In this document: positions 3,861 to 44,029 of the stretch, piece by piece | Position numbering within the stretch: position 1 is the first letter of the stretch | Layout: every line of letters starts with the position of its first letter | Assembly: GCA_031258505.1 (NCBI GenBank) | Contig: JAIRMT010000013.1 | Span: forward strand, 1-47,969 | Length of the DNA stretch: 47,969 bases | Source: Treponema sp. | GTDB taxonomy: Bacteria > Spirochaetota > Spirochaetia > Treponematales > Breznakiellaceae | Direction: 5' to 3' | Position numbers and translations under genes: made by a program | The notes under the pieces: model-generated | Databases searched by the model: none | The model's input: only the letters and a program-made list of their open reading frames with translations | What the model was told of the DNA's origin: nothing

Positions 3861-3871
3861 AATGCTTGTTG

Positions 3872-4750
3872 TTATATGTTCGTTGCTAGTTCGGGCCTGA
3901 CTTCGCCGGTCTCTAGCGACAGCAAATACTTGCCCCACTTGCCCGCCCAATCGCGCAGAGCTTGTACGCTAAGCGGGTTCGGAGCGCGGGAATCTGTGTG
4001 CGCGGCTATCTCCCGCGCCAGCGATAAATACACCTGCGCCTGAGCTGAATCAGGCGCAGCCTCTATGGTGGTCTTGCCTTGCAGTTCACACTGCGTAACC
4101 GTAACCGAGCGGGGGATATATTCCACTACGCGAGTCTGTGTCTGAGCCACAAAGTCATCGATAATTTCTTTCGCATAGGGCTGGTTAATCGAATTGGCTA
4201 TTACGCCGCCCAGTAACGCGCCGCCAGAGTTGGAGTATTTCTGGATGCCGCGAAAAAGGTTGTTCGCCGCGTAAACCGCCATGAAGTCCGCCGAGGAGAC
4301 AGTGAAGACGTGTTGAGCTATGCCTTCACGAATCGGAACCGCGAAACCGCCACAGACCACGTCGCCAAGCACGTCGTAGATCACGAAGTCCAGGTCAAGT
4401 TCCTCGAAGATGCGCTGCTGCTTGAACAGTTCTACGGCAGTGATGATGCCGCGCCCAGCACAGCCAACTCCGGGCGAGGGACCGCCAGCTTCCACGCAGT
4501 ACACGCCGTTAAAGCCTCTGAAAATAACTTCATGGGCGTTGACCGCGCTCTTTTCCCGCAGGGTATCGAGTACGGTCGGGATGTAGGTTCCATCGCGGAG
4601 GGTGTTGGTCGAGTCGCTTTTGGGATCGCAACCAAACTGCATGACCTTGTAGCCGAGTTTTGAGAGAGCGGCGCTCAGGTTGGATGTAGTGGTGGATTTG
4701 CCAATGCCTCCTTTGCCATAGATTGCGATCTGTTTTGCTTTGCCCATCAT
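3872..4750 (-). CDS. NifH-family ATPase / [4Fe-4S] reductase component of a nitrogenase-like enzyme
   Basis: 292 aa. It has the P-loop GKGGIGKS, switch I CDPKSDST, and both cluster cysteines in NifH-type contexts ([17 protein letters not shown] and [14 protein letters not shown]). Confidence 0.93.
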
Positions 4751-4757
4751 AGCCCTC

Positions 4758-6317
4758 TCATCCGTTCACCACAGACTTGATAGTCGGGGGTTCGTTGTCG
4801 CTGGACAGAGGGACGGACTTGATGTAACTGAACGGGTCCTGCTCGTACCATGTTTTCTTAAAGGGCAGCGGCACGTTGAGCGAGAGTTGGCGGTTGAACT
4901 CAGCATTGCGGAACTTCTTTGCCAAACGCCGCGCAATCTCAAACACGCCTGAATAGCCGCAGTAGTTGTACTGAGGGCCGAAGAGTGGAAGCAAAGGGAG
5001 TCCATGGCGAGAAGCGATGTTGTTTCCGCCAACATGGGCAACGAGAATGTCCGGCTTGAGCTTTGAGATGATGTTCGACGATTCAAAGGGCTGGTTTGTG
5101 GCAACGCTGAATAACACATCATCAACATCGTGAAGCGCCTCAAAGATGGGTTCAACAAAGCGGTCGTAGTGGTGCGCCTTGAACCCAACGACTTCTATCT
5201 CCAAGTCTTGCAAGACCTCGGCAGTGGCGAGGATGCGTACCTCGCCGCCGAGTAGGTAGGCGCGTTTGCCTTTGAGGGTTTTACGGTATGGGTTCAGCGC
5301 TTCCTCAAGGTACTGATGCTCGGCTTTGATGAGGCGTTCTGTCTCATCCTCAATGCCGAAGTGGGCGGCGATGCGGCGCAGCCACCTGTCCGTGTTCTTC
5401 CGACCAATCGGGATGGTGTCAACCACAAAGGGAATGTTGTACATGGTCTTCAGGTGTTCCACGAAATAGTCATCGTGTGTGCCGCAGAGACTTACGTTGA
5501 GGCTGGTTTCCAGCGCGTACTGAAAATCCTCTGGTTTTGCGTAACAGGGGATAAACGTAACCTCAAGCCCCAGGGCTTCAAGGATGCGGCGGAACTCGGT
5601 TTCGTCAAAACGGCTCATGGAACCGACATTCAGCACGTTCAGCTTTCGGCTCCGGCGGTACTGTTCTCGCTGGCGCTGTTCCTCCTGTTCCCAGATGGGC
5701 TGCTTACGGTCTGGATAGCGAATGTACTTCTTGAGTATGCCGTGATACACCGCGTCATAGGCAGTTGCCATGAGCTTTGTCTTAAAGCCCTCGCAGTGTA
5801 TGGGAACGAGGATTGCCGCAGTTTCCTTCTGTATATCCTGAAGGATGTTGTCAATGTCGTCCCCGATGAGCGCCGGGACACAGCTATTGGTAACAATGAT
5901 GGACTCAGGCCGGAATTCCTTGTCCGCGTACAGGATTGCGTCGCGCAGCTTTTTTTCACCGCCGCCGATGACGTCTGGCTCATCAAGGTTGGTACTGAGC
6001 CAGATAAGCCCTGTTGCATTGGGGTCTCGTACCTGTTTCATGGCTTTGTTCTGCCCATAAGCGCCGATGGAACACATACCGCAACCCACAGGACCGTGCA
6101 TGATTACTACAGAGTTTCGTATGGAGTTGAGCATACCGAGGCTCAGGGTAAATTGACACCCCTGGGCTTGGGTGAAGGCGCGGGATGAGAGGTTTGTACA
6201 GCCATGCGCCTTTGCGCGGTCGCAAGTCCGTACCTGCGAACAGGTTCCGCCAAAAGCAATGGCTGCATGGAGCCGGTCTTCCCGTGATGGGGCTGATTTC
6301 GCATCTAAAAAGTTCAT
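4758..6317 (-). CDS. NifD/NifE-like subunit of a nitrogenase-like (component 1 type) oxidoreductase
   Basis: 519 aa. It carries NifD-type motifs QGCQF (Cys54), HGPVGCG (Cys79), [13 protein letters not shown] (Cys146), PIHCEGF (Cys175) and [25 protein letters not shown] (Cys278, aligned by eye to the NifD Cys275 region). AAGGAG SD. Confidence 0.88.
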
Positions 6318-6329
6318 ATTTTCTACTCC

Positions 6330-7670
6330 TTATCTTGTTGCTACCAGGTAGGTAATGACGTCTTCCGCAAAGGAAAGTCCTCCGCTATAGCCGGCATAGG
6401 CGCGGTTCATCACGCAGCGTCCGGTAAGAGGGAAACTAACGGGTATGAGGGGATAACCGAATTCATCGGATAGGTCCCGCTCAAACGAACTGCCAATAAT
6501 GACCGTTGGATTAAAGGGGTCGTAGTACCGGTCATTCTGGTTCCGGGGCCAGACTTCTCTCAGGTATTTTTTTACCGAAGATGCGTCAGTATCAAAGCGC
6601 ACTGACGGCGTGAGTCCTGAGTTCAATTCCTGAAACTGGGCGCTTACACTCTGTTGACGGCTCTTGTCGAGAGTGTCTGTTACCATAACCAGTTCTGGTA
6701 TCCAGCCCAGCTCGTCAGAGACAAAACGGGTTATTGCCGGCGCATAGTTGGAATCACCGATTACCACAGCATAGCGCTGGAGATCAGCGTCATTGTATAT
6801 GTCCGCGATACGTGAGAGGTAGTCGTAGTAGATTGACTTCTCCTCGTCAATGACGCGCTTGACCGCTGCCGAGTCAAGCGCAAGCGCCTTGCCGACGCTG
6901 TTCAGGAAAACCTCGCTTGCCAGCGCCCCGATGGGGAAGGGCGTTACAATGTAGGGGATGCCGTGTACTTCCTCAAAGTATTGGGCGCTGTCAATGCCCG
7001 GTCCATTGGATACAACGATGTTCAGCCCCGCGTTACCCGCGTTTTTGAGCGCGTCCAGGGTTTCACCCTCGCCAAAGAAGGTGTTTACCGTGAGTCCAAG
7101 CCGCTCCAGAAGCCGCTTGAGTTCCCGCAGATTGCCCTTCCAGAATACGTCCTGCGCTGGAACTATACCAAGCACGTTGACGGTGAGCGGGTCTTTCGAG
7201 GCTTGCTTGGCAATGTACTTGGCGATGAGTCCTTTCAGCACAAGCTCATAACCAGTGAAGGCGTTACCTTTGAAGCTAGGCGTGGGAATGGCGATGACTG
7301 GTTTTTCCGCGTCAGCGAATTCAGCTGCAACTGATACGGTGTCGTCGCCAATCATATCAACCATACAGCCGGTTACGACGACATAGAGGTCGCCGTCCAC
7401 GATTTCAAGGGTTGACTGTATCTGCTCCCGCAGGCGGCCTTCACCGCCAAACACCACATCCCGTTCCACCACGTTGGAACTGGGCAGGGCAGCGCCGCCG
7501 CAGTAGCCGCCGCCGAGATAGCCTGCGCCGGCATTGAGCGCCGCGTTTATGTTGCCGCCGCAACCTGCCGAGCCGTGTATAATGCTTATTGTCCTGGGCA
7601 GGGCATGCAATGTACCAATCGCGCCGCCAAGCGCACAGGTGTAGCGCGGTCGGTCGATAAATTTACTCAT
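6330..7670 (-). CDS. NifK/NifN-like subunit of a nitrogenase-like oxidoreductase
   Basis: Three P-cluster-type cysteine motifs: RYTCALGGA, HGSAGCGG and VTGCMVDMIGDD. I prefer the start at 7670 (MSKFIDRP) because GGAGG lies 8 nt upstream. The track start at 7685 lies inside that SD. Confidence 0.85.
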   Translation of the reverse strand: MSKFIDRPRYTCALGGAIGTLHALPRTISIIHGSAGCGGNINAALNAGAGYLGGGYCGGAALPSSNVVERDVVFGGEGRLREQIQSTLEIVDGDLYVVVTGCMVDMIGDDTVSVAAEFADAEKPVIAIPTPSFKGNAFTGYELVLKGLIAKYIAKQASKDPLTVNVLGIVPAQDVFWKGNLRELKRLLERLGLTVNTFFGEGETLDALKNAGNAGLNIVVSNGPGIDSAQYFEEVHGIPYIVTPFPIGALASEVFLNSVGKALALDSAAVKRVIDEEKSIYYDYLSRIADIYNDADLQRYAVVIGDSNYAPAITRFVSDELGWIPELVMVTDTLDKSRQQSVSAQFQELNSGLTPSVRFDTDASSVKKYLREVWPRNQNDRYYDPFNPTVIIGSSFERDLSDEFGYPLIPVSFPLTGRCVMNRAYAGYSGGLSFAEDVITYLVATR

Positions 7671-7691
7671 TTCATATACCTCCATATTGTT

Positions 7692-8639
7692 TTAACCATG
7701 AGAAAACGTTTCCTCAATAGGCGTTCTGTTTTCGCCATAGATGAGGGACGCAAAATCCCCCTTACCCGGAATGCCGATGGCGTCGGCGCGGCAGTGCTGA
7801 CAGTGCCTGAACACTGGCAAGTAGGCTTCAGCCGCCTCACGAGCGCGGCTAAGCGCGTCGCAGTCCGGCGCGCTGTATTCCGCGAACTCGTGTTGGGGTA
7901 TGAGGGGAATAATGTTAATGATAGACGCGCCCCAATCATGCGCGGCGCGGGCAATGTCGGCGATGTGTGTGTCGTTAACGCCCGGAATCAGCACGATGTT
8001 AATCTTGATGGTGAAGCCAATGTCCGCCGCCTCTTGTATACCCCGCTCTTGCGCGCTGATTAAGAAGACCGCGCCTTCAACGCCAGTATAGACCTTGCCG
8101 TCAAGCATTACATGGGAACAAATCCGGTGAAGAATGACTGGATCAACAGCGTTCACGGTTACGGTCAGAGTTTTGACTCCGACCTGTGCAAGGTCTTGGG
8201 CGTAGCGCTCCAGCAACAAGCCGTTGGTGGATAGACATTTGATGAGCGCCGGGTATGCCTGATGAATGAGCGCGAAGGTTTCAATGGCGTGAGTCGTTGC
8301 CAGCGTATCTCCCGGACCAGCGATACCTGCCACTGTGATGTCAGGACAGCGTTCCAGCGCCTCTTTCACCAGGTCAACCGCGTCTTTTGGCGCAAGCAGT
8401 CTCGCGCTTACCCCAGGGCGATTCTCGAACTTGTTAAACGAGCGCTTGCAGAACCGGCACTGTATGTTACACACCGGACTGACAGGCAAATGCACCCGTC
8501 CATGATTCAAGGTTGCCCCGCTAGAAAAGCAGGGGTGATTCAGCGAAGGGTGAAGGCTGGAGCGCGCATTAGCGGTTCCAGTGGATTGAAGAATCTTGAC
8601 ATTCTCCGTAATCGCTGAAGCAGCGAGAGCTGCACTCAT
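7692..8639 (-). CDS. nifB: NifB-like radical-SAM cofactor maturase (stand-alone SAM domain, no C-terminal NifX domain)
   Basis: 315 aa. It has HPCF...[20 protein letters not shown] (a CX3CX2C motif), [32 protein letters not shown] and a C-terminal [12 protein letters not shown]. These are the characteristic NifB motifs. Its ATG overlaps the cysK stop (ATGA). Confidence 0.88.
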
Positions 8640-9583
8640 AGCGGTCGTTCCAGTGAATCGAAGAGCGCTGTTGAGAGATAGCGTTCGCCCGTATCTGGCA
8701 GGAGCGCGACAATGGTCTTGCCTTGAAACTCCGGTCGTTTGGAGATTTGGGTTGCTGCGTATACAGCCGCGCCTGAAGAAATGCCCACGAGCAAGCCTTC
8801 GGTTATGGCAAGACGCTGGGACGCGATATAGGCTTCCTCAGTACGCACCTTGTAAATCTCGTCGTATATCGAGGTGTTAAGCACATGGGGTACAAAACCC
8901 GCGCCTATGCCCTGAATCTTGTGCGGACCTGGCGCTGAACCAGACAGTACCGCTGAATCGTAGGGTTCCACGGCAATCACTTTTATTGCCGGATTCTGCG
9001 CTTTGAGGAACTCGCCCGCGCCAGTGATAGTGCCGCCAGTTCCAATGCCTGCGACAAAGGCAGCCACATCGCCGTCAGTGTCCCGCCATATTTCAGGACC
9101 AGTGGTTTTCCGGTGAATGTCTGGATTTGCCGCATTGTTAAACTGCTGGGGAATAAAGGAACCGTTAATCTGAGCGTGGAGTTCCTCAGCCTTCCTGATA
9201 GCGCCTTTCATGCCGTCCTTACCCGGTGTGAGTACCAGCTCTGCGTTCAGCGCGCTCAACAGTTTCCGCCGCTCTATACTCATGGTGTCGGGCATAACCA
9301 GAATGATGCGGTAACCCTTAGCTGCGGCGACAAAAGCCAGCCCCACGCCAGTATTCCCACTCGTTGGCTCAATCAGCACGCTGTCCTTGGTTATCAGCCC
9401 CTGCTGTTCCGCCGCCTCGATCATTGCCAGCGCGATACGGTCTTTAACGCTCCCCGCTGGATTGAAGTATTCCAGCTTTGCCACGAGCCTTCCCTTCAGC
9501 TCAAAGCCCTCAGCATAGCCGCTCAGTTCCAGCAGCGGCGTATTCCCGATAAGCTCCGTCAGTTTCTTTGCAATCTTTGCCAT
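8636..9583 (-). CDS. cysK: Cysteine synthase A / O-acetylserine sulfhydrylase (first gene of the nitrogenase-like operon)
   Basis: 315 aa. PLP-lysine motif [15 protein letters not shown] loop and [20 protein letters not shown]. Confidence 0.93.
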
Positions 9584-9651
9584 CTTTTTCTCCTTCCTTC
9601 TTTATATAAATAAATCGTTAAACGATGAGGAATTGCCCCTCATTGCTTTAA

Positions 9652-10460
9652 GGATTGAACGCCCAGTTCCTTTAGGAACTAACGCCTAGTTCCTTAGGGG
9701 AACTAACACCTAGTTCCTCTAGGAACTAACACCTCGTTCCTCTAGGAACTAACACCTAGTTCCTTATGGGAACTAACACCTAGTTCCTTAGGGGAACTAA
9801 CACCTAGTTCCTCTAGGAACTAACACCTAGTTCCTTTAAGGAACTAACGCCTAGTTCCTTAGGGGAACTAACACCTCGTTCCTTAGGGGAACTAACGCCC
9901 AGTTCCTTAGGGGAACTAACGCCCAGTTCCTTTAGGAACTAACGCCTAGTTCCTTTAGGAACTAACACCCTGATCCTAGAGGAACTAACGCCTCGTTCCT
10001 TAGGGGAACTAACCGCTAGTTCCTTAGGGGAACTAACACCCTGATCCTCTAGGAACTGATACCTAGTTCCTTTAGGAACTAACACCTAGTTCCTCTAGGA
10101 ACTAACACCTAGTTCCTTATGGGAACTAACGCCTAGTTCCTTATGGGAACTAACGCCTAGTTCCTTATAGGAACTAACGCCTAGTTCCTTATGGGAACTA
10201 ACACCCTGATCCTCTAGGAACTAACACCCTGATCCTCTAGGAACTAACGCCCAGTTCCTTTAGGAACTAACCGCTAGTTCCTCTAGGAACTAACCACTAG
10301 TTCCTCTAGGAACTAACGCCTAGTTCCTTATGGGAACTAACACCTAGTTCCTCTAGGAACTAACACCTCGTTCCTTATGGGAACTAACACCTCGTTCCTT
10401 ATGGGAACTAACACCCTGATCCTCTAGGAACTAACACCCTGATCCTCTAGGAACTAACAC
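9652..10460. repeat. Tandem array of about 34 palindromic units with a 23-24 bp period
   Basis: The unit is GGAACTAAC[A/G]CC[T/C][A/C]GTTCC plus a 4-5 nt linker (TTTA, TCTA, TTAGG, TTATG). I counted 33 full units plus degenerate ends. TAG/TAA stops occur in every unit, and the ORF track has no ORF of 60 aa or more across it. Confidence 0.95.
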
Positions 10461-10524
10461 AGTCGGCGTGGCGACCTTCATTTTTGAGTAAGGTTGTTAC
10501 CTTTTCGATATTTTGGGGGAATGG

Positions 10525-10643
10525 TAACTCATGTTACGCAGGAAGAAAAAATGGTAAGAATTGGTCATCGAATGGACGCTAATATACGCGAATAGGTCAT
10601 TTCTCTAAAGAAGATTCGCGTTCATTCGCGTAATTCGATGATC
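10525..10643. repeat. Right copy of the inverted repeat of at least 119 bp (partner 1..119)
   Basis: See feature 1..119. It lies between the palindromic array and the ispG stop. Confidence 0.85.
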
Positions 10644-10688
10644 TTTTTCTTTCCGGTGCGTAAGGTGAATGGTAAGTCAGAATTTGAA

Positions 10689-11801
10689 CTATCTTTTCGC
10701 GCCAGCTTCCCCCAGCATTTCCCGCCACGCCTCGTCCGCGTCCCTTGCGTCTATCGTGCGCAGCAGTTCCCCGCGCCGGAACAACATTACCTTGTCGCCA
10801 ACGCCCGTGATGCCGAGGTCTGCCGAGCGCGCCTCGCCGGGGCCGTTCACTACGCACCCCATTACCGCGATGGTCAGCGGCTTGTCCAGCGCGTATAGCG
10901 TGGTTTTCCAGCGCTCGGTGAAGGCGTGCGTGTCAAAGCTGTTTCTGCCGCAGCGGGGACACGAGATGATTGTTACGCCATTGCGCGGAACACGGTCAGA
11001 GGCTAGGGTGGCGAGGATTTCTCTGGCGGCAATGACTTCGTTCTCCATCGTGTCAGAGAGCGAGACACGGATTGTATCGCCGATGCCGGTGGAAAGCAGC
11101 GAGTGCAGGGCAATGGTGTTCCGTACCACACCAGCGATGAGGGGACCGGCTTCAGTAACGCCGATGTGGAGTGGCGCGTCAGTGCGGTCGGCAAGGAGGC
11201 GGTTTGCGGCGATGGTGTCAGAGACAGAAGAGGCTTTCATTGAGACGAGTACCTTGTCAAAGGCGAAGTCGCGGAAGATGGCAAGTTCACGTTCTGCGGC
11301 CTGTACCAGCGCTTCCACACGGCTGAGACGCTTTTCGTCAACCTGAATGTGGAGGTCTTGCGGCAGACTTCCAGCGTTCAAGCCAATACGGATGGGGACG
11401 CCTGCGGCGGCGGCTTTCTCCAGCACTTGGGCGGTTTTGTCTTTGCCACCGATGTTACCGGGGTTCAGGCGGATTTTGGCTATTGGGAAGTCAAGGCAGC
11501 GAAGCGCGATTTTGTAGTTGAAGTGTATGTCTGCTACCAGCGGCATGGAGACCATGCCAGCCAGGGTTCCTATGACTTCGGCGGCGTCCATGTCTGGCAC
11601 GGCAAAACGCAATAAGCCGCATCCCATGTCTTGTAATGCGGCTATGCGTTTGACGATGGCTTCGCCAGATGCGCCTTCGATGTCCGTAAAATGAAGGCGG
11701 TCTTTCCACATCGTTTGTATAACGATGGGTAGACCGCCGCCGATAGAAACGGCAGAGACGTTTGCTCTGCCGCCTATTGTTATGGTTCGGGAAAGCCGCA
11801 C
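10689..11801 (-). CDS. ispG: 4-hydroxy-3-methylbut-2-en-1-yl diphosphate synthase (MEP pathway)
   Basis: 370 aa. It has the typical IspG N-terminus (IGG..PI.IQTM), the NPGNIG motif and a C-terminal [4Fe-4S] CPRCGR...GCVVNGPGE. It starts 6 nt after the V-ATPase K gene. Confidence 0.92.
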   Translation of the reverse strand: MRLSRTITIGGRANVSAVSIGGGLPIVIQTMWKDRLHFTDIEGASGEAIVKRIAALQDMGCGLLRFAVPDMDAAEVIGTLAGMVSMPLVADIHFNYKIALRCLDFPIAKIRLNPGNIGGKDKTAQVLEKAAAAGVPIRIGLNAGSLPQDLHIQVDEKRLSRVEALVQAAERELAIFRDFAFDKVLVSMKASSVSDTIAANRLLADRTDAPLHIGVTEAGPLIAGVVRNTIALHSLLSTGIGDTIRVSLSDTMENEVIAAREILATLASDRVPRNGVTIISCPRCGRNSFDTHAFTERWKTTLYALDKPLTIAVMGCVVNGPGEARSADLGITGVGDKVMLFRRGELLRTIDARDADEAWREMLGEAGAKR

Positions 11802-11807
11802 GGTTTG

Positions 11808-12239
11808 CTAGAGGCTGACCATTGAGAGTACCATCGCAAAGAGCGCGACGGTTTCGCAGATGCCGACAACCGAGATGTACTGTGCAAAGCCCTTACCGGT
11901 TTCGCCCTGTGCATCGGAGGCTGCAGCGCCTGCCTGACCCTGCGCGATTGCCGAGAATGCCATTGCCAGACCTGAGCCGATACCAAAGCCTAAGTAGAGC
12001 CAGCCTTGGTCAGGGTTTGCCAGCGCTGCAGCTTTTATCTGACCCATGAGAATGAACCCGTAAAACGTCTGGGTTAAGGGTGCGCCAGCAAAGGTAACCA
12101 GTGTCATGGGTGCGGGTTTGTTGGCAATGTAACACCGCTTCCACGCGCCTATTGCCGATTGCCCGGCAATGCCGATACCGATTGCTGAACCTATTGCCGC
12201 AATACCCATTACAAGACCTGCGCCTAATAATCCTAACAT
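11808..12239 (-). CDS. ntpK: V-type ATPase proteolipid subunit K
   Basis: 143 aa, glycine/alanine-rich, four predicted TM helices. It is the last gene of the V-ATPase operon. Confidence 0.88.
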   Translation of the reverse strand: MLGLLGAGLVMGIAAIGSAIGIGIAGQSAIGAWKRCYIANKPAPMTLVTFAGAPLTQTFYGFILMGQIKAAALANPDQGWLYLGFGIGSGLAMAFSAIAQGQAGAAASDAQGETGKGFAQYISVVGICETVALFAMVLSMVSL

Positions 12240-12309
12240 GTTAAACTCCTTCTATAATCTGCAAGTTTAAAGCTTGGTAAAGACTTGGCTTTACCAGAAA
12301 CTCATTGCA

Positions 12310-14148
12310 TTAAATTTTAACCGTTTTACCAAACGGTTTATACATAAAGCCTGACCAGGTAAGCCCTAAATGCCCGGAGAATTCTAGGGTATTCAGCCGC
12401 ACACCGTGAACAAGCACCGACAACACATTGAGTACGACATTCAAGCCATGCCCAAAGACTAAAAGAATGATGCCCATAAAGATTAAAAAGTTTCCTAAGA
12501 GGGGGCCTGCCATAGTATTCACGGTCGATGAAATCGACGCGCCAGCAAGCCCTACAGCCCAGAGACGGATGTAGGACATGATGTCCGAGAACACGTTAGT
12601 AATGCCCAGTACCACTGAGATGATGTTCTTAAAACTGTACAAGATGGACTGCCCCAGATTGCCCTCATAACCAGCGAACACAAACGTAAGGAAGAAGCCG
12701 CCGCCTAAGAGGTACAGCGACGCTGGCAAAAGGGGTATCTGCCGGTAGCTGTTACTGACCACGAGGAAAAGCACAAGGTTGAACATTCCGATGAGCATGG
12801 CAAGGGAGCCTAGTTCAGCGAACAGTTTTAAGGACTTGATGTTGCGAAAGAAACCTTTGATGTGCGCAATGCCGAGTTGCAGGAGCGCAAGTGAGAAACA
12901 GAAGATTTGCAGGTTTTGATCAACGATAGCCTTTTGCGCCACGCCTTTTGCCGCTTCCGCACTGGAAAGCGCTGGTAACGAGATACTTCGCAGGATTTCT
13001 GGCAGCTTCGCCGCATCAATGCCGAACCATGTGCAGGTAATAATACCCCAGGCGATATTGGATAGGCTGAGTAGTCCCAGCATTTTAAGCGCGGCGGGAA
13101 CGCCTTGAGCCGCAGTCTTGGCAATACCGATGATGGCGATAATACCAAGTATCGCGCCATAGCCTGCATCCCCGAAAATCATGCCGAAAAATATGCAGAA
13201 GAACAGCAGGAACCAGCCAGATATGTCTACTTCACGGTAGCCCGGCACTACTTCTAGGAAGTCGGTGAGCGGGTAGATGAGGCTGGCGAGTTTGTTGTTC
13301 TTGAGCAGGGTCGGTACTGCATCTTCTTCGGACGGGTCGGCTATTGCCAATGCCCAGCCGTTTTCGGCGGCGGCGCGTTTCAGCACGCCAACGTCGTCCT
13401 TTGGCGCAAAACCAGTGAGCCAGGAAATGCCTGTGCTAAGGGAATTTGCGCCCGGGCTAACGCTGTCCATGCTTGCCTTCGCGGTTTCAAACTCAATGTT
13501 TCGCGCCAGGGTCTTTAGCTCGTCCTCAATACTGTTTTTATGAGCGGCAAGCATTGCAAAGCGTTTCTCAAGGTCTGCCAGTTTTGTCTGAATGTTCTTT
13601 ATGAGCGTGCGCATTTCAGACAGAGATTTTTCGGGCAGGGCAAAGGGCGTCTCACCGGTGATTTCGTGATCCAGCGCCACGCCGTATACCTTAACCTTGT
13701 CCCGAAACAGGGTAATAAAACGCTGTTCTTTGTCCAGAGACTCATACGCCTTGTAGGACAATTCATAGGGGATAAGAGTGAGTCCCTGCTTGACCAGCTC
13801 TTTCAAGGCAGCGGGGTTGAAATCCCCCCACTTCTCAACGCGGCTCTCTTCTTTGCCAAGCGACAAAACCTGTTCCTGAAGCGTCTTCTTTTCGTTGTCC
13901 ATACCCAAGACCTCGGTAACTAGGTCTGAGATAGACGCTTTTGAATCAGTTTCTGCGGCTTTATAAGACCGCAGAAGTCCGAGCGCTGTTTCCGCCTTTG
14001 CCTTGCGGTCGAGCTGCTTTGAGAGACCGTCGCTGGCAACAGGACGCGACTCAATGTGCAACAAGCCCAAGTCACGGAGTTTGGCAAGCGATGCGTCGCG
14101 GGTTTTATCCATAACCACGATGGAGATTTTCTTCATTGGTACTATCAT
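12310..14148 (-). CDS. ntpI: V-type ATPase subunit I (membrane stator/a-subunit)
   Basis: 612 aa with a soluble N-terminal half and a polytopic C-terminal half. Operon position is between D and K. Confidence 0.88.
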   Translation of the reverse strand: MIVPMKKISIVVMDKTRDASLAKLRDLGLLHIESRPVASDGLSKQLDRKAKAETALGLLRSYKAAETDSKASISDLVTEVLGMDNEKKTLQEQVLSLGKEESRVEKWGDFNPAALKELVKQGLTLIPYELSYKAYESLDKEQRFITLFRDKVKVYGVALDHEITGETPFALPEKSLSEMRTLIKNIQTKLADLEKRFAMLAAHKNSIEDELKTLARNIEFETAKASMDSVSPGANSLSTGISWLTGFAPKDDVGVLKRAAAENGWALAIADPSEEDAVPTLLKNNKLASLIYPLTDFLEVVPGYREVDISGWFLLFFCIFFGMIFGDAGYGAILGIIAIIGIAKTAAQGVPAALKMLGLLSLSNIAWGIITCTWFGIDAAKLPEILRSISLPALSSAEAAKGVAQKAIVDQNLQIFCFSLALLQLGIAHIKGFFRNIKSLKLFAELGSLAMLIGMFNLVLFLVVSNSYRQIPLLPASLYLLGGGFFLTFVFAGYEGNLGQSILYSFKNIISVVLGITNVFSDIMSYIRLWAVGLAGASISSTVNTMAGPLLGNFLIFMGIILLVFGHGLNVVLNVLSVLVHGVRLNTLEFSGHLGLTWSGFMYKPFGKTVKI

Positions 14149-14747
14149 TGGGCAGCCCTCTGCATACCACGTTTGGCGATCTTGCCGCGAACCACTGCCG
14201 CAGTCTGCTGATCACCGAGGTATACCTGAATTTTCTTGATATTCCCTGTAGTTTCGGGAATCTTGATCTTCTCAAACAGGTTGACTCGCTGAGTCGTTAC
14301 CCGCAGTTCATGCTCCAGCCGCTTGCGCTGTTCCTCGAGGGTCTGCGCCTCAAGGTCAAGCAAGAGTACCTGCTTCATGCGCTCCACAGCTGCGTCAAGC
14401 CAGAGCGGGGTACGGACGAGGTCGTAAGGCGTGATTTCAAAGTCAGCGCCATGAAAGACAGGGATTGTTACGCCCGCAATGTTTCCCTCAGAAGTCCGCA
14501 GACTGGTGATTCGGAGTATGTCTGGGGTGAAAAAGCCCTTCTCGCCGTAGACCGCGATCCATGCCTTGAAGGTTTCATCAATCCGCTTTTTTTCGTCGAG
14601 CAGTTCTTTGATACGCGACTCTGTGGTTCTGATTTCTGCCTGAAGCTGTTGTTTCTTGAGCATGAGCGTAGGCAGATAACGCTGAAACATTTTCAGCGAA
14701 TCTTTCTGCTTTTTAAGCTCATTCTTCGTCAGCTTGATCTTTGCCAT
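14145..14747 (-). CDS. ntpD: V-type ATPase subunit D
   Basis: 200 aa, with a coiled-coil N-terminus (KLTKNELKKQKDSLKMFQRYLPTL). It overlaps the start of subunit I. Confidence 0.88.
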   Translation of the reverse strand: MAKIKLTKNELKKQKDSLKMFQRYLPTLMLKKQQLQAEIRTTESRIKELLDEKKRIDETFKAWIAVYGEKGFFTPDILRITSLRTSEGNIAGVTIPVFHGADFEITPYDLVRTPLWLDAAVERMKQVLLLDLEAQTLEEQRKRLEHELRVTTQRVNLFEKIKIPETTGNIKKIQVYLGDQQTAAVVRGKIAKRGMQRAAQ

Positions 14748-14754
14748 GGCGACC

Positions 14755-16053
14755 TCAGTTCTTCTTGGGCCAGAACTGGTTGATCAGTTCAGTCCGCAGG
14801 CCGGTTTCTTCTGGTGTGAAGCAATCGGCGAGGATTTCCCACCCCTGGTCCAGGGCGTGTTCCAGCGGGATGTTAACCGAAAGGTCCATCATCTTGCTTT
14901 CAAAATGCTCGCCGTATTTAAGGAGCTTCTCATCCCAGTTGGTCATCATAAAGCCCATGGCCTTTTTCTCAAGCGTGTCCTTGTACGCGGCGTAGAGCCG
15001 AATCATGCCGTCCATGATAGCGCGGTGGTCCTTGCGGGTCTTGTTGTTTACCTGCTGTTTTAAGCGCGACAACGAACCAAACGGTTCAATGCGCCCGTTC
15101 TTCAGGTAGTACTGGCCTTCGGTGATATAACCTGTGTTATCCGGCACCGGATGGGTTACATCGTCACCAGGCATCGTGGTTACGCCAAGAACGGTAATGG
15201 AACCAGCAGTATCGAAGTCAACCGCTTTTTCGTAACGGGACGCGAGTTGGCTGTAAAGGTCGCCTGGATAACCACGGTTTGACGGAACCTGCTCCTGTAT
15301 AATGGAGATTTCTTTCATGGCATCGGCGAAGTTCGTCATGTCGGTCAAGAGGACCAGCACATCCTTGCCCTGCAAGGCGAACTGCTCGGCAACCGCCAGC
15401 GACATATCGGGGATCATGAGGCACTCGACAGTGGGGTCGCTCGCCGTATGCACAAACATCACGGTGCGGGAAAGCGCGCCCCCTTCCTCCAGTGTATCCT
15501 TGAAAAACAGATAGTCATCATACTTTAGACCCATTCCGCCTAAAATGATAACGTCAACCTCAGCCTGCATTGCGATACGCGCCAAGAGTTCGTTGTACGG
15601 TTCACCAGACACCGAGAAGATTGGCAGTTTCTGGGAAACGACCAGCGTGTTAAACATGTCTATCATGGGGATACCGGTACGGATCATACGGCGTGGGATG
15701 ATGCGCTGCGCAGGATTCACCGACGGCCCCCCGATGGGTATCAGATTCTCGTGGAGCGCCGGTCCCCTGTCGCGGGGAGCGCCTGAACCGGAGAACACGC
15801 GCCCCATGAGGTTGTCAGAGAACGAGACCTGCATGGGGTGTCCGAGGAAGCGTACCGTGTCGCCGGTAGAGATACCGCGCCCGCCCGCGAACACTTGCAG
15901 GGAAACGATGTCGTTTTCCAGTCGGTTTACCTCGGCAAGGGATATGCCGAAAGCAGTGTCAACTTCCGCGAGGTCGCCGTAGCGAATGCCCTCGGCTTTC
16001 ACCGTAATAACGCTACCGGTGATGGATTCTATCTTGCTATATACCTTTTTCAT
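14755..16053 (-). CDS. ntpB: V-type ATPase subunit B
   Basis: 432 aa, non-catalytic A/B-family nucleotide-binding fold. Confidence 0.92.
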
Positions 16054-20897: not shown

Positions 20898-21248
20898 ATG
20901 GCTTGGCGAGTTGCATTCACGAGCGCCGACGATGTTTATGTGAACCAGCATTTTGGACACGCCCGTTACTTCGTCATCAGGGATATAGAGGCTGATGGTA
21001 CGAGTAGCTTTTTGGAACGACGGGAGATTACACCAGTCTGCGGAAGCGGCGATCACGGCGCTGGGGTGCTAGACGATGTGATCGAGAGCCTGCACGATTG
21101 TATCGCGGTACTTACCGCAAAGATTGGTCCCGCACCCCGCAAACGGTTGGAATTGGCGGGTATCACGGTTTTCGAGGAACCAGCTATCATTGAGGAGGCG
21201 GCGAGGAAACTGGCGGCTTACTATAGCCGGACAAAGCGAGAGGAGTAG
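20898..21248 (+). CDS. NifX/NifB-C-terminal-domain family protein (Fe-S/FeMo-cofactor-binding family)
   Basis: 116 aa. It shows the family signature VNQHFGHARYFVIRDIE at the N-terminus and the small alpha/beta size typical of NifX/NafY/NifB-C domains. Confidence 0.75.
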   Translation: MAWRVAFTSADDVYVNQHFGHARYFVIRDIEADGTSSFLERREITPVCGSGDHGAGVLDDVIESLHDCIAVLTAKIGPAPRKRLELAGITVFEEPAIIEEAARKLAAYYSRTKREE

Positions 21249-21745
21249 CCATTAAAACGGTGGTTCAGCGACCACAACCAGACCCTGAGCTTATCGAAGG
21301 GGCAGTCGTTTCAAGTGGCTCAAGAATTTCTTATAAAAAACCTTAAAATCCATTGACACTCTATGTTTTACAAGATATATTCTTAGTAAATCAGTGGGTA
21401 TTATAAATAAAGGAGTTTTTATGTCGGAACTAAGCATAAGCGCCGCGCCAAAGGGCCTAAGCGTTGACAAAGACTTGACGCTGTCTATCCATTTTGACTG
21501 GCGCACTTTGATCCCACTCGCCTCGGTCGCTTTTACGCAGGTACTTCGGTATACCGCGTTGCCAGTGGCATCAGCATACCGTACCAAGGTTTCGCCATGG
21601 TTCATCTGGTTCAACATCGCTGCCGGAGTACTGGTAATACTTGCGGTTCGGGAGCGCTTCACGTATAAATCGTGGTTTCTGGGGGTAGCGTTTTTTCTGC
21701 TCAACTTGTATAACCTCATCACCGTAAAGTTCGGCCTGATTCCCA
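21176..21745 (+). repeat. Copy A of a dispersed direct repeat (NifX-like 3' end, operator, promoter, SD and permease 5' end)
   Basis: It aligns by eye with 28121-28545 (copy B) and, from 21311 on, with 40377-40834 (copy C). Confidence 0.85.
21321..21381 (+). promoter_or_regulatory. Imperfect 24-bp AT-rich palindrome plus sigma70-like promoter (copy A)
   Basis: CAAGAATTTCTTATAAAAAACCTT at 21321-21344. TTGACA at 21353-21358, a 17-nt spacer, and TATATT at 21376-21381. Confidence 0.55.
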
Positions 21746-28120: not shown

Positions 28121-28193
28121 GGAACCAGTAATCATTGAGGAGATGGTGTAGAAGCTGGCGGCTTACCATAGCCGGACGAAGCGTGAAGAGTAG
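28121..28193 (+). pseudogene. Remnant of the NifX-like gene 3' end
   Basis: ggaaccagtaatcattgaggag...gaagagtag parallels 21176-21248. It has an internal in-frame TAG and no start. Confidence 0.8.
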
Positions 28194-28257
28194 TCATTAA
28201 ACGGTGGTTCAGCAACTGGAACCTGAGCTTGCCGAAGGGTCAGTCGTTTCAAGCGGC

Positions 28258-28318
28258 TTAAGATTTTTTATAAAAAATCTTAAAATCTATTGACACTCCA
28301 TTTTTTATAATATATATT
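28258..28318 (+). promoter_or_regulatory. Perfect 26-bp palindrome plus sigma70-like promoter (copy B)
   Basis: TTAAGATTTTTTATAAAAAATCTTAA at 28258-28283. TTGACA at 28290-28295, a 17-nt spacer, and TATATT at 28313-28318. Confidence 0.55.
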
Positions 28319-28357
28319 CTTAGTAAATCAGTGGGTATTATAAGCGAAGGAGCTTTT

Positions 28358-35762: not shown

Positions 35763-35780
35763 ATAGAAAGGAGAATGATT

Positions 35781-40376: not shown

Positions 40377-40834
40377 TCAAGCGATTCAAGGTTTTTTATA
40401 AAAAACCTTGAAACCTATTGACACTTGATGTTTTACAAGATACATTCTTAGTAAATCAGTAGGTATTATAAGCAAAGGAGCTTTTATGTCGGAACTAAGT
40501 ATAAGCACTGCGTCAAATGGCCTAAGCGTTGGCAAAGACTCGGCGCTGTCCATCCATTTTGACTGGCGCACTCTGATCCCACTCGTCTCGGTCGCCTTTA
40601 CCCAGGTACTGCATACCGCGCTGCCAGTAGCGTCAACGTATCGCACCAAGGTTCTACCGTGGTTCACCTGGTTCAACGTCGTTGCTATCGGGGTACTGGC
40701 AATACTCGCGGTGGTGAGTCTCTTTAACAGCCGGTATCGGGAACGGTTCACGTATAAATCATGGTTTCTGGGGGTAGCGTTTCTTCTGCTCAACTTGTAT
40801 AACCTCATCACCGTCAAGTTCGACCTGATTCCCA
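40377..40834 (+). repeat. Copy C of the dispersed direct repeat (the functional copy, continuous with the full-length permease)
   Basis: It aligns with 21311-21745 (copy A) and with copy B from about 28250 to 28545. Confidence 0.85.
40387..40446 (+). promoter_or_regulatory. Perfect 24-bp palindrome plus sigma70-like promoter (copy C)
   Basis: CAAGGTTTTTTATAAAAAACCTTG at 40387-40410. TTGACA at 40418-40423, a 17-nt spacer, and TACATT at 40441-40446. AAGGAG at 40475-40480. Confidence 0.55.
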
Positions 40835-41502
40835 GCCTCTATTTCCCATCGCCGGAACGGATCGTGTATGTATTTCTCACAGACTGGTTCTTTATACTGC
40901 GCTGCCTAGTCTACTCGCTCCGTTTGTTGCTGGGCGGCTTCTTCCTCGGCGCGCTGCTTGGGGTGCTAACCGGTACGCTCATCGGCTGGAGCCAGCGCTG
41001 GAACTACTGGATCATGCCCTGTATCCGAATCGTGGGACCGATTCCATCAACCGCCTGGATACCCATCGCGCTGGTGGTCTTCACAAAAGCGACCGATGCA
41101 GCGCTGTTCCTCATCGCCCTGGGAGTCTGGTTCCCCACAACGGTACTCACCAGTTCAGGCATCCTCAATGTGCGGAAAAGTTACTTCGAGGTTTCAAGCA
41201 CCTTGGGAGCGAGCAATCTGCGGAATGTGCTTTCCATCGCCCTACCCGGCGCCGCGCCAAACATCTTCGCGGGCCTGTTTAACGGCACATCGTCGTCATT
41301 CCTAACCCTTATGGCCGCTGAAATGATCGGCTGTAAGTTCGGCATTGGCTGGTACATCAACTGGCAGAGGGAAACCATGGCGTATTCACAGGTGTACGCA
41401 GCGCTCATCGTGATTGCCATAACCTTTTCACTCCTCATTAACCTCCAGTTCAAGATTCGCAATCGCGTCCTGAGTTGGCAGAAAGGCACAATTCGGTGGT
41501 AG
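40486..41502 (+). CDS. ABC transporter permease (NitT/TauT family) with an extra N-terminal membrane extension of about 110 aa
   Basis: 338 aa. The C-terminal ~230 aa resemble permease 29639..30508. The N-terminal extension is the part duplicated in copies A and B. Confidence 0.88.
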   Translation: MSELSISTASNGLSVGKDSALSIHFDWRTLIPLVSVAFTQVLHTALPVASTYRTKVLPWFTWFNVVAIGVLAILAVVSLFNSRYRERFTYKSWFLGVAFLLLNLYNLITVKFDLIPSLYFPSPERIVYVFLTDWFFILRCLVYSLRLLLGGFFLGALLGVLTGTLIGWSQRWNYWIMPCIRIVGPIPSTAWIPIALVVFTKATDAALFLIALGVWFPTTVLTSSGILNVRKSYFEVSSTLGASNLRNVLSIALPGAAPNIFAGLFNGTSSSFLTLMAAEMIGCKFGIGWYINWQRETMAYSQVYAALIVIAITFSLLINLQFKIRNRVLSWQKGTIRW

Positions 41503-41510
41503 GTGAAAAT

Positions 41511-42305
41511 ATGCAAACAGCAGTACATGGCGGAACCATACGGATCAACGGTGTAACTAAAACCTTTCCTCAAGAAGGCGCGGCTGATATTACCGTGCTG
41601 GATAACATCAGCCTTGTTTTCAAAAGCGGCGAGTTTATTTCTCTCATCGGCCCATCCGGATGCGGGAAGTCAACCCTGCTGCGGCTCATCGCTGGACTTA
41701 CCCAAAGCGATAGCGGCTCACTTTTTTTGGATGACGCCGAGATACAAGCGCCGGGACATGAGCGAGGGCTGGTGTTTCAGGACCCAACCCTGTTCCCGTG
41801 GAAAACCATCTGGGAGAACATCGCCTTCGGGCTGCGGGCGCGTGGGGTCTATCGTGAAGAAAAACAGAACATTCCCGGGTTTTTCAAGCTCGTGGGGCTT
41901 GAGGGCTTTGAGAAGTCCTATCCTCACCACCTTTCCGGCGGTATGGCGCAGAGGGCGTCGCTGGCCAGGACCCTCATCAATAACCCAAAAGCGCTCCTGC
42001 TTGACGAGCCTCTGGGCGCTCTTGACGCCTTTACCCGCATGAATATGCAGGACGAGATTCTCAAGATATGGGAAGAACGTCGAATGACTATGGTCATGGT
42101 TACGCATGATGTTGATGAGGCGATTTACATGGCTGACCGCATCGTGGTCATGTCAGCGCGCCCGGCTAAGATTGAAAAGATGATTACAGTGGAGATTGGC
42201 CGTCCGCGACAGCGCGACGACCCGGACTTCCTCGACCTGCGAGCGAAGATACTACAAATCCTGCACTTCGCGGGCGCAAAGCAGGAACCGGAGTACAACT
42301 TGTGA
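41511..42305 (+). CDS. ABC transporter ATP-binding protein (SsuB/TauB-like)
   Basis: Start at 41511 (MQTAVHGG). Walker [10 protein letters not shown], signature LSGGMAQR and Walker B LLLDEPLGALD are present. Confidence 0.9.
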   Translation: MQTAVHGGTIRINGVTKTFPQEGAADITVLDNISLVFKSGEFISLIGPSGCGKSTLLRLIAGLTQSDSGSLFLDDAEIQAPGHERGLVFQDPTLFPWKTIWENIAFGLRARGVYREEKQNIPGFFKLVGLEGFEKSYPHHLSGGMAQRASLARTLINNPKALLLDEPLGALDAFTRMNMQDEILKIWEERRMTMVMVTHDVDEAIYMADRIVVMSARPAKIEKMITVEIGRPRQRDDPDFLDLRAKILQILHFAGAKQEPEYNL

Positions 42306-42354
42306 AAAAACCGTCGTTGACGGAGAACATCTTTTTAAGGAGAGGATATAAACT

Positions 42355-43380
42355 ATGAAAAAAGCTATCCTTTTGCTTTCATTGGTTTGCGTGGCGGTAC
42401 TTAGCGTCCACGCAAGAGGTCAGAATCAGGGAACTTCCGCTGCTGCAGCGGAAGACCCGAACTATGTGGTCAAGATCGGACGGTCAGTCTCCGTCGGTCT
42501 TTGTACTTCACCTTTCGTCATCGCCGAGCATTTCGGTTACTACGAGGAAGAGGGACTCAAGTGGGATTCTGTCGCTATTGAGACAGGTCAGGCCAACCTC
42601 CTGCTCACCACCGGCGCGGTTGATGTTACCAACAACCTTTTGGCCACGCTCATTCAGCCCATTGCCAATGGTCTTGACGTGAAGATTCCCCTGGGCATAC
42701 ACACGGGCTGCCAGAAGGTACTGGTACGCGTTGATTCTGATATACAAACGCCCGCAGACCTTCGCGGCAAGCGAATCGGCACAACCGGCATGGCATCCAG
42801 CGGCACGGTCATCACCCAGCGCTATCTCGCGGAACTAGGCATTGGCGTTACCGCCGATAACCTTGAGGTTGAGTGGCTGATCTATCAGCAGGCAGACCTC
42901 CCGTTGGCGCTTGAGCGGGGACAGGTTGACGCCATCGCGCTTGGAGACCCGACCGCTTACATCGTTGAGCAGGAAGGAAAGGCTAGGGTAATCATCAATC
43001 AGGCTACAGACGACTACCTCAAGGACGAATTCTGCTGTGTGGTAGTTGCTTCAGCCAACTTTGTGAAGGATCATCCCGAAGCTGCGGCAAAGTTCACCCG
43101 CGCTATTCAGAAAGCCGCAGCCTTTGTGCAGGAGAACCCTGATGAGACCGCCCGTATTCTTGATGAGCGAAAGTATGTGGCCGGCGATCCAGAGGTAAAC
43201 GCCGCCATACTCAAGACCTACAACTTTAGGGCTTCGGTGAGCGAGGCGGAAGTGGCGATTTCCCGTAATACGCGCGACCTCCAGAGAATCAATCTGGTGG
43301 ACAGCGACGTTGACCCCGACGCCCTTACGCGGAACGTCTTCATTGCCCTGCCCGGTGTGCCGGATTCACTGTATAAGTGA
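42355..43380 (+). CDS. ABC transporter substrate-binding protein (NMT1/SsuA-like)
   Basis: 341 aa with a signal peptide (MKKAILLLSLVCVAVLSVHA) and GGAGAGG SD. Confidence 0.8.
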   Translation: MKKAILLLSLVCVAVLSVHARGQNQGTSAAAAEDPNYVVKIGRSVSVGLCTSPFVIAEHFGYYEEEGLKWDSVAIETGQANLLLTTGAVDVTNNLLATLIQPIANGLDVKIPLGIHTGCQKVLVRVDSDIQTPADLRGKRIGTTGMASSGTVITQRYLAELGIGVTADNLEVEWLIYQQADLPLALERGQVDAIALGDPTAYIVEQEGKARVIINQATDDYLKDEFCCVVVASANFVKDHPEAAAKFTRAIQKAAAFVQENPDETARILDERKYVAGDPEVNAAILKTYNFRASVSEAEVAISRNTRDLQRINLVDSDVDPDALTRNVFIALPGVPDSLYK

Positions 43381-43408: not shown

Positions 43409-43439
43409 GGATTAACCGCAATACCTTTGCGGTTAATCC
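43409..43439 (+). terminator. Strong stem-loop after the SBP gene (putative terminator)
   Basis: GGATTAACCGCA-atacctt-TGCGGTTAATCC, a perfect 12-bp stem 28 nt after the stop. There is no U-tract, and it abuts the second repeat array. Confidence 0.4.
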
Positions 43440-43443
43440 CGTA

Positions 43444-43766
43444 GGAATGAGGCGTTAGTTCCCCTAAGGAACTAGGCGTTAGTTCCTAGAGGAACTAGGC
43501 GTTAGTTCCTCTAGGAACAGGGTGTTAGTTCCTAGAGGAACTAGGCGTTAGTTCCTCTAAGGAACGAGCGGTTAGTTCCCCTAAGGAACGAGGCGTTAGT
43601 TCCTAGAGGAACTAGGCGTTAGTTCCTATAAGGAACGAGGCGTTAGTTCCTAGAGGAACTAGGTGTTAGTTCCTAAAGGAACTAGGTGTTAGTTCCTAGA
43701 GGAACTAGGTGTTAGTTCCCATAAGGAACGAGGCGTTAGTTCCTAGAGGAACTAGGTGTTAGTTCC
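43444..43766. repeat. Second palindromic tandem array (14 units), inverted relative to 9652..10460
   Basis: The units GGAAC[T/G]AGG[C/T]GTTAGTTCC are the reverse complement of the GGAACTAAC[A/G]CCTAGTTCC unit in array 1. Linker types are the same. Confidence 0.93.
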
Positions 43767-44029
43767 TAGGGAAGGCTTAGAGCGTCTCTTATCAAAGAGA
43801 GTACCGCATCTCATACCTTTCACACTCTGTACCATTGACAATATCGCCAGAGCCGCCTGTTTTATCGTTTGCAGATTTTGCGCCTCATGCTTCCTCATCG
43901 TCGTATGCTGGTCGTCTTGAACGCATCTATAGCTGCATGGGAGTATGCCTGGGGAATTTCTATGCGTTTATCCTGGTGATTGCCTATGCAGTCTTGCGCC
44001 ACTTGGTGTTGAATTGATATATTCATGTT

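Follow-up and report, generated by a model that had tools for sequence, protein, structure and literature searches.

Gene content of the contig

The window analysed here is one whole contig of 47,969 bp (JAIRMT010000013.1) from a termite-gut-type Treponema, whose ispG gene is 91–92% identical to those of metagenome-assembled genomes (MAGs) of Treponema sp. and 72–74% identical to that of T. primitia ZAS-2. The element in question is a tandem array of short palindromes, called A1 below, that occupies 9652..10460 (minus strand) between the stop codon of ispG and the start codon of a cysK gene, and of which a preliminary description had been made from the sequence. The contig is dominated by sulfur metabolism: it carries methionine and sulfonate-type ATP-binding cassette (ABC) transporters, three cysK paralogues, ThiS/JAB/MoeZ-like genes, an SrpI encapsulin with a cysteine desulfurase, and a hexapeptide-repeat transferase that is probably CysE.

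Five genes, all intact, lie downstream of A1 at 3872..9583 (minus strand), namely cysK, a NifB-like radical SAM gene, two nitrogenase component-1-like genes and a NifH-like gene. Judged from its context, this nif-like operon appears to resemble, in composition and setting, those of the nitrogenase-like methylthio-alkane reductases, which are sulfur salvage enzymes (PMC12552129). The upstream neighbour of the array is now ispG (10689..11801, minus strand), the last gene of a V-ATPase/ispG block. On the plus strand, the genes of an SsuA-family ABC permease, ATPase and binding protein (40486..43380) correspond to those that directly precede cysK in all relatives.

Two inverted arrays of one palindromic unit

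A1 consists of 33 full units of 23 or 24 bp with truncated units at its ends. It was confirmed as a tandem repeat by Tandem Repeats Finder (TRF), which places it at 9658–10460 with a period of 23, 34.2 copies and 86% matches, and which also detects a weaker higher-order period of 165 bp. The unit is GGAACTA-ACRCC-TAGTTCC followed by a linker of 4–5 nt, repeated head to tail; on the minus strand, the sense of the flanking genes, it reads GGAACTA-GGYGT-TAGTTCC. Half of the units are 23 bp and half 24 bp long, and their linkers are TCTA (12), TTAGG (7), TTATG (7), TTTA (4) and a few singletons. Along the whole array GGAACTA and TAGTTCC alternate every 11–12 bp. Six units (13, 16, 23–24 and 32–33) belong to a CTGATCC subfamily and include two adjacent pairs. 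Each of the six frames contains 16–41 stops, the longest open stretch being 48 codons, and the array begins 68 nt upstream of the cysK ATG at 9583 (minus strand). The preliminary description had reported about 34 units of 23–24 bp, the unit GGAACTA-AC[A/G]CC-TAGTTCC with 4–5 nt linkers (TTTA, TCTA, TTAGG or TTATG), an unbroken chain of alternating inverted half-sites, a variant subfamily recurring in adjacent pairs, non-coding sequence with stops in all frames, and a distance of 68 nt to the cysK start codon; our parsing bears it out on all these points.

The 19-nt core GGAACTAACRCCTAGTTCC, sought with ≤3 mismatches, has 49 matches in the window against 0.01 expected from shuffled sequences, and all of them are confined to A1 and a second array, A2 (43443..43773, plus strand). 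A2 comprises 14 units of the A1 family (TRF, 14.2 copies) on the strand opposite to A1, to which it is 87–89% identical when the two are compared on opposite strands. Its neighbours are the SsuA-family binding-protein gene, which precedes it, and a LiaF-like gene, which follows. The two arrays are inverted relative to each other, yet each has the same orientation relative to its own flanking genes. The link between A1 and this inverted partner goes beyond the preliminary description.

The internal variant patterns of A1 and A2 differ, and the variant half-site GGATCAG/CTGATCC occurs in A1 only. Among the 47 units of both arrays, the 9-nt left half GGAACTAAC is invariant in 46–47, and variation of the stem is restricted to the right half, at positions 13, 14 and 16. 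A perfect 7-bp stem is formed by 26 of the 47 units; the other 21 have a stem mismatch, and no compensatory stem change was found among the 47.

The arrays mark a break in gene order

Five related Treponema contigs, whose cysK proteins are 94–97% identical to that of the window, are colinear with it up to position 43439, beyond which they match the opposite strand directly from 9595 onward. Ancestrally, then, the permease, ATPase and binding-protein genes were followed, after a short spacer, by cysK, the radical SAM gene and the nif-like genes; Breznakiellaceae SP9, with a cysK 84% identical, has the same order. The spacer between the binding-protein gene and cysK measures 82–130 bp in the relatives and contains one conserved hairpin with a stem of 11–12 bp and no T-tract. 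In the window this junction is broken; one array stands at each of its two ends (43439 and 9595), both being of the same family and inverted relative to each other. The A1 site corresponds, in the ancestral gene order, to the spacer that separates cysK from the sulfonate-type ABC transporter genes.

The sequences that flank the arrays can be assigned in part to ancestral pieces. Just 3′ of the binding-protein gene stands the conserved intercistronic hairpin GGATTAACC..GGTTAATCC (43409..43439, plus strand), which is the last base-for-base homology with the relatives ahead of A2. Past A2, a stretch of 211 bp that ends at the LiaF-like gene (43774..43984, plus strand) has no homologue in the relatives, and in L012 and L013 homology to the window begins only at 43985/44002. 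On the cysK side, a remnant of the ancestral spacer (9584..9651, minus strand), within which homology to the relatives resumes at 9595, holds degenerate edge units (GGCGTTCAATCC, GGGCAATTCCTC), a conserved CTCATCGTTTAACGAT stretch and a ribosome-binding site.

At the ispG side of A1, 10461..10486 (minus strand) is ancestral ispG-downstream sequence (TCAAAAATGAAGGTCGCCACGCCGACT) common to the window and its relative L005, and A1 starts right after it. The A1-equivalent position of L005 is occupied by a palindrome, GGATCAGCGCTGATC, that resembles the A1-only half-site GGATCAG/CTGATCC. This likeness, a matter of one 7-mer, suggests that A1 may be truly resident beside ispG. Between the ancestral stretch and ispG lies an insertion of ∼185 bp (10487..10672, minus strand) that is absent in L005 and resembles a MITE, a miniature transposable element with inverted repeats. 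It contains a weak promoter-like site (10609–10581) directed through A1 to cysK, and the contig of strain L003 (98.8% DNA identity) breaks inside it. The MITE-like element is flanked by CTTAC and has an internal inverted repeat; a second, inverted partial copy (1–119) forms the start of the contig.

A1 had been placed by the preliminary description where the promoter of the nif-like operon should be. This view was not supported: in the relatives, cysK comes directly after the ABC genes, and the promoter-like module is found at 40418–40446. The likely native promoter module (40385..40446, plus strand), upstream of the permease, ATPase and binding-protein genes, consists of a 28-bp perfect palindrome followed by TTGACA-17-TACATT (40418–40446) and is strongly promoter-like. 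At ∼40.4 kb, it is now 33 kb from the cysK operon and points the other way. Given the relatives' gene order and the place of the module upstream of the permease gene, A1 marks a cut between the operon and its likely promoter rather than a promoter region.

The same module is part of a triplicated cassette (21176–21745, 28121–28544 and 40377–40834), the copies of which are 82–85% identical to one another. Each comprises the 28-bp perfect palindrome, TTGACA-17-TACATT (TATATT in the other two), a ribosome-binding site and approximately the first 100 codons of the sulfonate-type permease, the shortest copy having fewer. The copies precede an iron-containing alcohol dehydrogenase (Fe-ADH) gene, the first binding-protein gene and the permease gene, and have no Rfam match. 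The cassette looks like promoter capture by duplication, and its three copies indicate a reused regulatory cassette.

Could the break have been made by the assembler? Either the array itself would be collapsed, expanded or chimeric, or the 33-kb segment alone would be wrongly oriented and the operon intact in the real genome. With short reads, inverted repeats of 330–800 bp do leave the orientation of the segment that they enclose ambiguous, the window, one metagenomic contig, is the sole assembly of this strain across the arrays, and the contig of the 98.8%-identical strain L003 ends before A1. However, independent assemblies of relatives from JGI, NCBI and Logan data contain analogous arrays; the variant patterns of A1 and A2 are distinct, one A1 variant resembling the ispG-side flank; and two arrays at two separate loci must exist under either orientation of the segment. 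We therefore regard an assembly artefact as very unlikely to be the explanation. That the array itself is artefactual is unlikely, and copy number and segment orientation are given here as assembled in this contig.

The segment enclosed by the inverted arrays is exactly the one that, if inverted, gives back the ancestral operon, and in L006 inverted arrays likewise flank the operon. Such a layout would suit a programmed flip-flop, in which recombination between the arrays reversibly joins and parts the cysK/nif-like operon and a sulfur-regulated promoter, as in phase variation. This idea is hardly credible to us, as no invertase or recombinase is encoded in the window, the existence of both isomers is not evidenced, and the second junction is unlike that of any relative.

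Arrays come and go among close relatives

The binding-protein–cysK junction is polymorphic between strains: L007–L011 have no array there, L006 has 22 + 8 units of other families, and the window has 34 + 14. In L006, the closest relative, the junction is filled by 22 units of TTGAAC-CGCTCT-GTTCAA-AGTGG and then, in phase, by a second 23-bp family of ∼8 units, which recurs as an inverted copy beyond the NifH-like gene. L007 carries a 24-bp × 20 array (GGTTCC-AACTA-GGAACA-GGGATCA; 11875–12351), starting 13 nt past the end of homology at the place where the nif-like genes are missing. A 22-bp array of L014 (9157–9602) is situated ∼400 bp upstream of cysK in a different neighbourhood, and L017 has 22/23-bp repeats beyond the NifH-like gene together with a three-pair mini-chain of GGAACC/GGTTCC half-sites at the junction. 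Indels in L006 (2213–3259), L007 (2050–2172) and L009 (6457–6706) are occupied by arrays whose period is 21, 42 or 63 bp; some of these may be coding, because a period of 21 bp is divisible by three. The other arrays of the relatives, too, are thus found where synteny breaks or at indels. No such arrays were found in 62 kb of housekeeping context in L004, L005, L012 and L013 (V-ATPase/ispG; rpoBC to FliG). Arrays come and go between close strains, and the sequence of their unit turns over.

The operon downstream of the junction has also decayed in several relatives. L007 is without the nif-like genes (10954–12566), L009 has a truncated radical SAM gene (11152–11838) and in L006 the NifH-like gene begins with a 218-bp tandem duplication (14714–15152), all of which is consistent with relaxed constraint on the locus.

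Allowing ≤4 substitutions, no solitary or degenerate copy of the window unit was detected elsewhere in the window or in ∼180 kb of relatives (17 loci). The search for the core genome-wide and across related genomes, which the preliminary description had proposed, revealed A2 within the window and gave no copies in these ∼180 kb of relatives. Exact scans of public genome, metagenome and viral collections for the core unit gave no match, nor did BLAST against plasmids and phages. Rfam returned nothing at the gathering threshold for the whole window and nothing at E ≤ 1 for the repeated leader region; the literature on Treponema or Breznakiellaceae contained nothing relevant that we could find on such repeats; and an exact-protein look-up of the window cysK retrieved no record. 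With Rfam, the exact-unit scans and plasmid and phage BLAST all empty, the preliminary description, which did not recognise the array as any described repeat family, can be upheld on this point, and the array family appears to be undescribed.

Among the array families themselves, the similarities of the window family to L006 family 2 (5/300 shuffles) and of L006 family 2 to the L014-a family (4/300) are nominally above chance; homology between families is not significant after 36 comparisons. The ancestral hairpin was also considered as a dispersed element of the repetitive extragenic palindrome (REP) kind and set aside, being single-copy per locus.

A loop-agnostic two-unit pattern matched one unrelated site each in genomes and metagenomes and none in viral contigs; a similar scan with the L006-unit pattern gave chance single matches only. 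At the first site, L001 (1615–1665), from a Planctomycetota MAG, TAGTTCC-N4-GGAACTA occurs twice with a 23-bp phase before a MarR gene, a small multidrug-resistance pump gene being downstream and an integrase gene upstream. At the second, L002 (1909–1975), from an environmental contig, TAGTTCC-N4/5-GGAACTA occurs three times with a 24-bp phase inside an initiator-like open reading frame (ORF) that is followed by DnaB helicase, a layout of the lambda-type origin.

The only public two-unit matches are genuine protein-site layouts, and they raise the question whether A1 and A2 are a multi-site platform or decoy for a dimeric protein of the helix-turn-helix or winged-helix kind (a regulator, partition protein or phage or plasmid replication initiator, for instance) that would bind as one dimer per 19-bp dyad with 23–24 bp phasing. 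The near-invariant left half of the unit also speaks for binding, as does a period that is kept while the sequence changes between strains. Against this, no candidate binding protein, par genes or initiator is present in the window, a host regulator would not switch specificity among strains with cysK 94–97% identical, most relatives are without the array, and no matching sites occur in phage or plasmid collections. The asymmetry between half-sites, too, is weak, as it counts ∼6 mutational events versus 1. On this evidence a protein platform is improbable.

A broader proposal would take the 22–24-bp dyad arrays as chromosomal decoys or platforms for a dimeric protein of fast-evolving specificity (for example, a phage or plasmid initiator titrated by host ‘iterons'), or the inverted pair as a recombinational switch of the sulfur-salvage operon. 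It would explain the kept architecture and phase, the differing unit between near-identical strains and the recurrence before cysK; we nonetheless hold it to be distinctly improbable.

Folding potential and effects on transcripts

Folded as single-stranded DNA, A1 reaches −166 kcal/mol, compared with −80 ± 4.8 in shuffles (z −17.8), and for the two arrays, as single-stranded DNA or RNA, z ranges from −10 to −18. The minimum-energy fold is a long fold-back that pairs distant units rather than a row of small hairpins, and the ensemble is diffuse, because the array is nearly its own reverse complement. A scan for terminators gave 19 terminator-like sites in the A1 region and 8 in the A2 region versus 1–2 expected, with only 3 G-C pairs in their stems, tails of the form GTGTTAGTT and no T-runs. 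Weak terminator-like motifs made of a hairpin and a T-rich tail number 8 (A1) and 4 (A2) on the sense strand, the opposite strand offering 5-pair stems only. Neither array appears to be a canonical terminator.

These properties bear on the possibility that the arrays act in RNA, as elements of the type of REPs and bacterial interspersed mosaic elements (BIMEs), whose hairpins, if transcribed with the operon, would shield the upstream transporter cistrons against 3′ exonucleases and, on the other side, attenuate read-through to cysK and the nif-like genes, with structure and not sequence under selection. There is a precedent in Escherichia coli, where REP325, between yjdM and yjdN, attenuates read-through and stabilises the upstream message (bioRxiv 10.64898/2026.03.23.713779). 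The ancestral site is likewise intercistronic and already had a conserved 11–12 bp hairpin without T-tract, A1 and A2 have the same orientation relative to flanking transcription, the better terminator-like motifs are those of the sense strand, and three lineages have arrays of like structure and different sequence before cysK. By contrast, a single hairpin suffices in most close relatives, the stem mismatches of 21 of the 47 units are uncompensated, the predicted fold is a diffuse long-range fold-back with no defined structure, and A1 presently follows ispG rather than the transporter genes. Weighing both sides, we think it unlikely that the arrays are primarily RNA elements of this type.

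Comparison with known repeats

A1 and A2 are non-coding, head-to-tail arrays with units in the range of 10–100 bp (TRF period 23; 34.2 and 14.2 copies), and presence and copy number at the same locus are polymorphic between close strains. They fall within the definition of a bacterial minisatellite, or variable-number tandem repeat, with an unusual, fully self-complementary design. They are not CRISPR arrays, as had been stated before: in place of unique spacers of ∼21–72 nt there are linkers of 4–5 nt and few recurring types, and the Pfam and NCBIfam annotation of the neighbours includes no cas genes or leader.

Regular palindromes in alternating orientation, clustered outside genes, are shared with REPs and BIMEs. 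We do not file the arrays there, because the unit is not dispersed (49 of 49 matches lie in the two arrays) and no gene for a REP-associated tyrosine transposase (RAYT, IS200/IS605-like) was seen in the 48-kb window. The closest architecture is nevertheless that of BIME-2 and clustered REPs of Enterobacteria, Xanthomonas and Pseudomonas, which are tandem palindromes in alternating orientation (PMC2817692). Both kinds are extragenic, often intercistronic, and vary in copy number or presence between strains. REPs, however, have >100 dispersed copies per genome, occur solitary and in doublets and are tied to RAYTs, whereas A1 and A2 are confined to two arrays. The unit of A1 is also shorter, and its array longer, than in REPs: 19 nt with a period of 23–24 bp, in arrays of up to 34 units that differ between near-identical strains, compared with a REP pair of roughly 80–100 bp.

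Mycobacterial interspersed repetitive units (MIRUs), minisatellites of 40–100 bp in Mycobacterium, resemble A1 and A2 in being head-to-tail, non-coding occupants of intergenic operon spacers, with strain polymorphism and concerted evolution of variants. They differ in unit length (40–100 bp), in not being palindromic and in often linking the flanking reading frames, while the units of A1 and A2 are self-complementary dyads. The dRS3 repeats of neisserial intergenic mosaic elements (NIMEs) are also short repeats with terminal inverted halves that form intergenic arrays and lie at rearrangement breakpoints; numbering hundreds per genome, they flank RS segments of 50–150 bp and serve as phage integration sites, none of which was seen for A1 and A2.

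With iteron and centromere arrays (lambda-type ori, the 22-bp repeats of R6K, sopC of F) A1 and A2 share a dyad of ∼19 bp with a short linker and a phase of 22–24 bp; their own 19-bp dyads recur at 23–24 bp, about two helical turns. Yet iteron and centromere arrays have 3–12 sites, beside or inside the gene of their binding protein on a phage or other replicon and conserved together with it, whereas the arrays described here have 14–34 units, are chromosomal and lack both a partner gene and conservation. The window has no Rep/O, ParB/SopB or ParR gene, in contrast to L002. Long DNA palindromes that act as fragile sites are similar in being able to form hairpins or cruciforms and in being associated with breakage and rearrangement; they are single long inverted repeats, whereas A1 and A2 are periodic quasi-palindromes of 7-bp arms, and their cleavage is putative.

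Other repeats and genes in the window

A third hairpin-type array (32747–32928), with 21-bp units of two subfamilies, lies between two cysK paralogues. Four of its units (GTCTACAGACAAYGGAGYATT) are in frame at the C terminus of a lipoprotein-like ORF (32386–32838), where they encode STDNGVL repeats, and past its stop codon the 14-bp palindrome TAGTCTGTAGACTA is formed by five units. The NifH-like gene has a duplicated 3′ end: 116–251 and 3871–4008, a 138-bp duplicate with 96% identity, are 3.6 kb apart, with hydrolase and chemoreceptor genes between them and the distant copy beside the MITE fragment. Near the contig end (47840–47921) there is a perfect heptamer repeat, CTCCCGG × 11.7. Within the sulfur locus, 35775–38184 encodes a type 2A encapsulin shell protein (SrpI-like) and then a cysteine desulfurase with an N-terminal extension; this pair is largely deleted in L006.

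A proposed unstable, self-complementary minisatellite

On balance we favour, with moderate confidence, the reading that A1 is a lineage-specific, fast-evolving, self-complementary minisatellite of BIME-like architecture that serves as a recombination substrate and hotspot of rearrangement, and not a promoter or a conserved regulatory site. The extreme structure potential of the arrays (z −14 to −18) speaks for it. The absence of the array in most close relatives, the turnover of its unit and the uncompensated stems argue against a conserved sequence-specific site. Among the candidate roles listed in the preliminary description, that of a recombination substrate is the one supported by the comparison with relatives, through the position of the arrays, exactly at both ends of the synteny break with respect to five relatives.

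Such an array would arise by tandem amplification of a 19-nt palindrome with its 4–5 nt linker. Half-sites able to pair with either neighbour would then form slipped hairpins and cruciforms, which may lead to replication slippage and gain or loss of units, and may also favour breakage or recombination. In general, SbcCD and template switching act on long palindromic DNA, and they may do so here. Variants would spread through unequal exchange, which would account for the mosaic of subfamilies and the degenerate edge units. Probably the junction held a single array, which was then divided when the 33-kb block 10461–43442 underwent an inversion-type event; alternatively, two inverted arrays may have recombined with each other. 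Either history would have severed the cysK/nitrogenase-like sulfur-salvage operon from the promoter at ∼40.4 kb. Present expression of cysK and the nif-like genes would need read-through from ispG over 0.8 kb of hairpins, the weak promoter-like site of the MITE-like insertion (10609–10581), or an unrecognised start within the 68-nt AT-rich remnant. Any effect of the arrays on expression, be it attenuation of read-through or protection of the 3′ end of the upstream message as in REPs and BIMEs, would come from structure and not from sequence; a secondary, structure-dependent effect of this kind on transcripts is plausible.

Several observations weigh against the minisatellite reading. Where the second breakpoint would lie, neither L004 and L005 (past ispG) nor L012 and L013 (ahead of the LiaF-like gene) show the adjacency predicted by a simple inversion, and their sequences differ from the window and from each other. 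A clean reciprocal inversion was accordingly set aside, the ispG tails of L004/L005 and the LiaF-upstream sequences of L012/L013 being mismatched to the window's second junction. The orientation of a segment between inverted repeats can be an arbitrary choice of the assembler, and the distribution of the arrays is read from a single contig of the source genome. An origin of the unit from the arm of the local hairpin was set aside as statistically unsupported, since circular alignment was not above shuffles (256/300 as good), the degenerate edge units being the sole hint of it. Finally, 22–24 bp palindromic arrays stand before cysK in three lineages (the window, L006 and L014) and the left half-site is invariant in 46–47 of the 47 units; both could be owed to selection, for protein binding or for a structural role, and not to mechanism alone.

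A new regulatory system is not indicated unless a binding protein is found. If the minisatellite reading is correct, termite-gut Treponema carry an undescribed class of self-complementary minisatellites, which appear, change and vanish between strains with cysK 94–97% identical and which mark breaks in gene order. Metagenome assemblies of these Treponema would then break or flip at such arrays. The arrays would offer a natural test case for the effect of hairpin-forming repeats on operon expression, and would explain by a concrete mechanism how a nitrogenase-like sulfur-salvage locus becomes plastic and decays.

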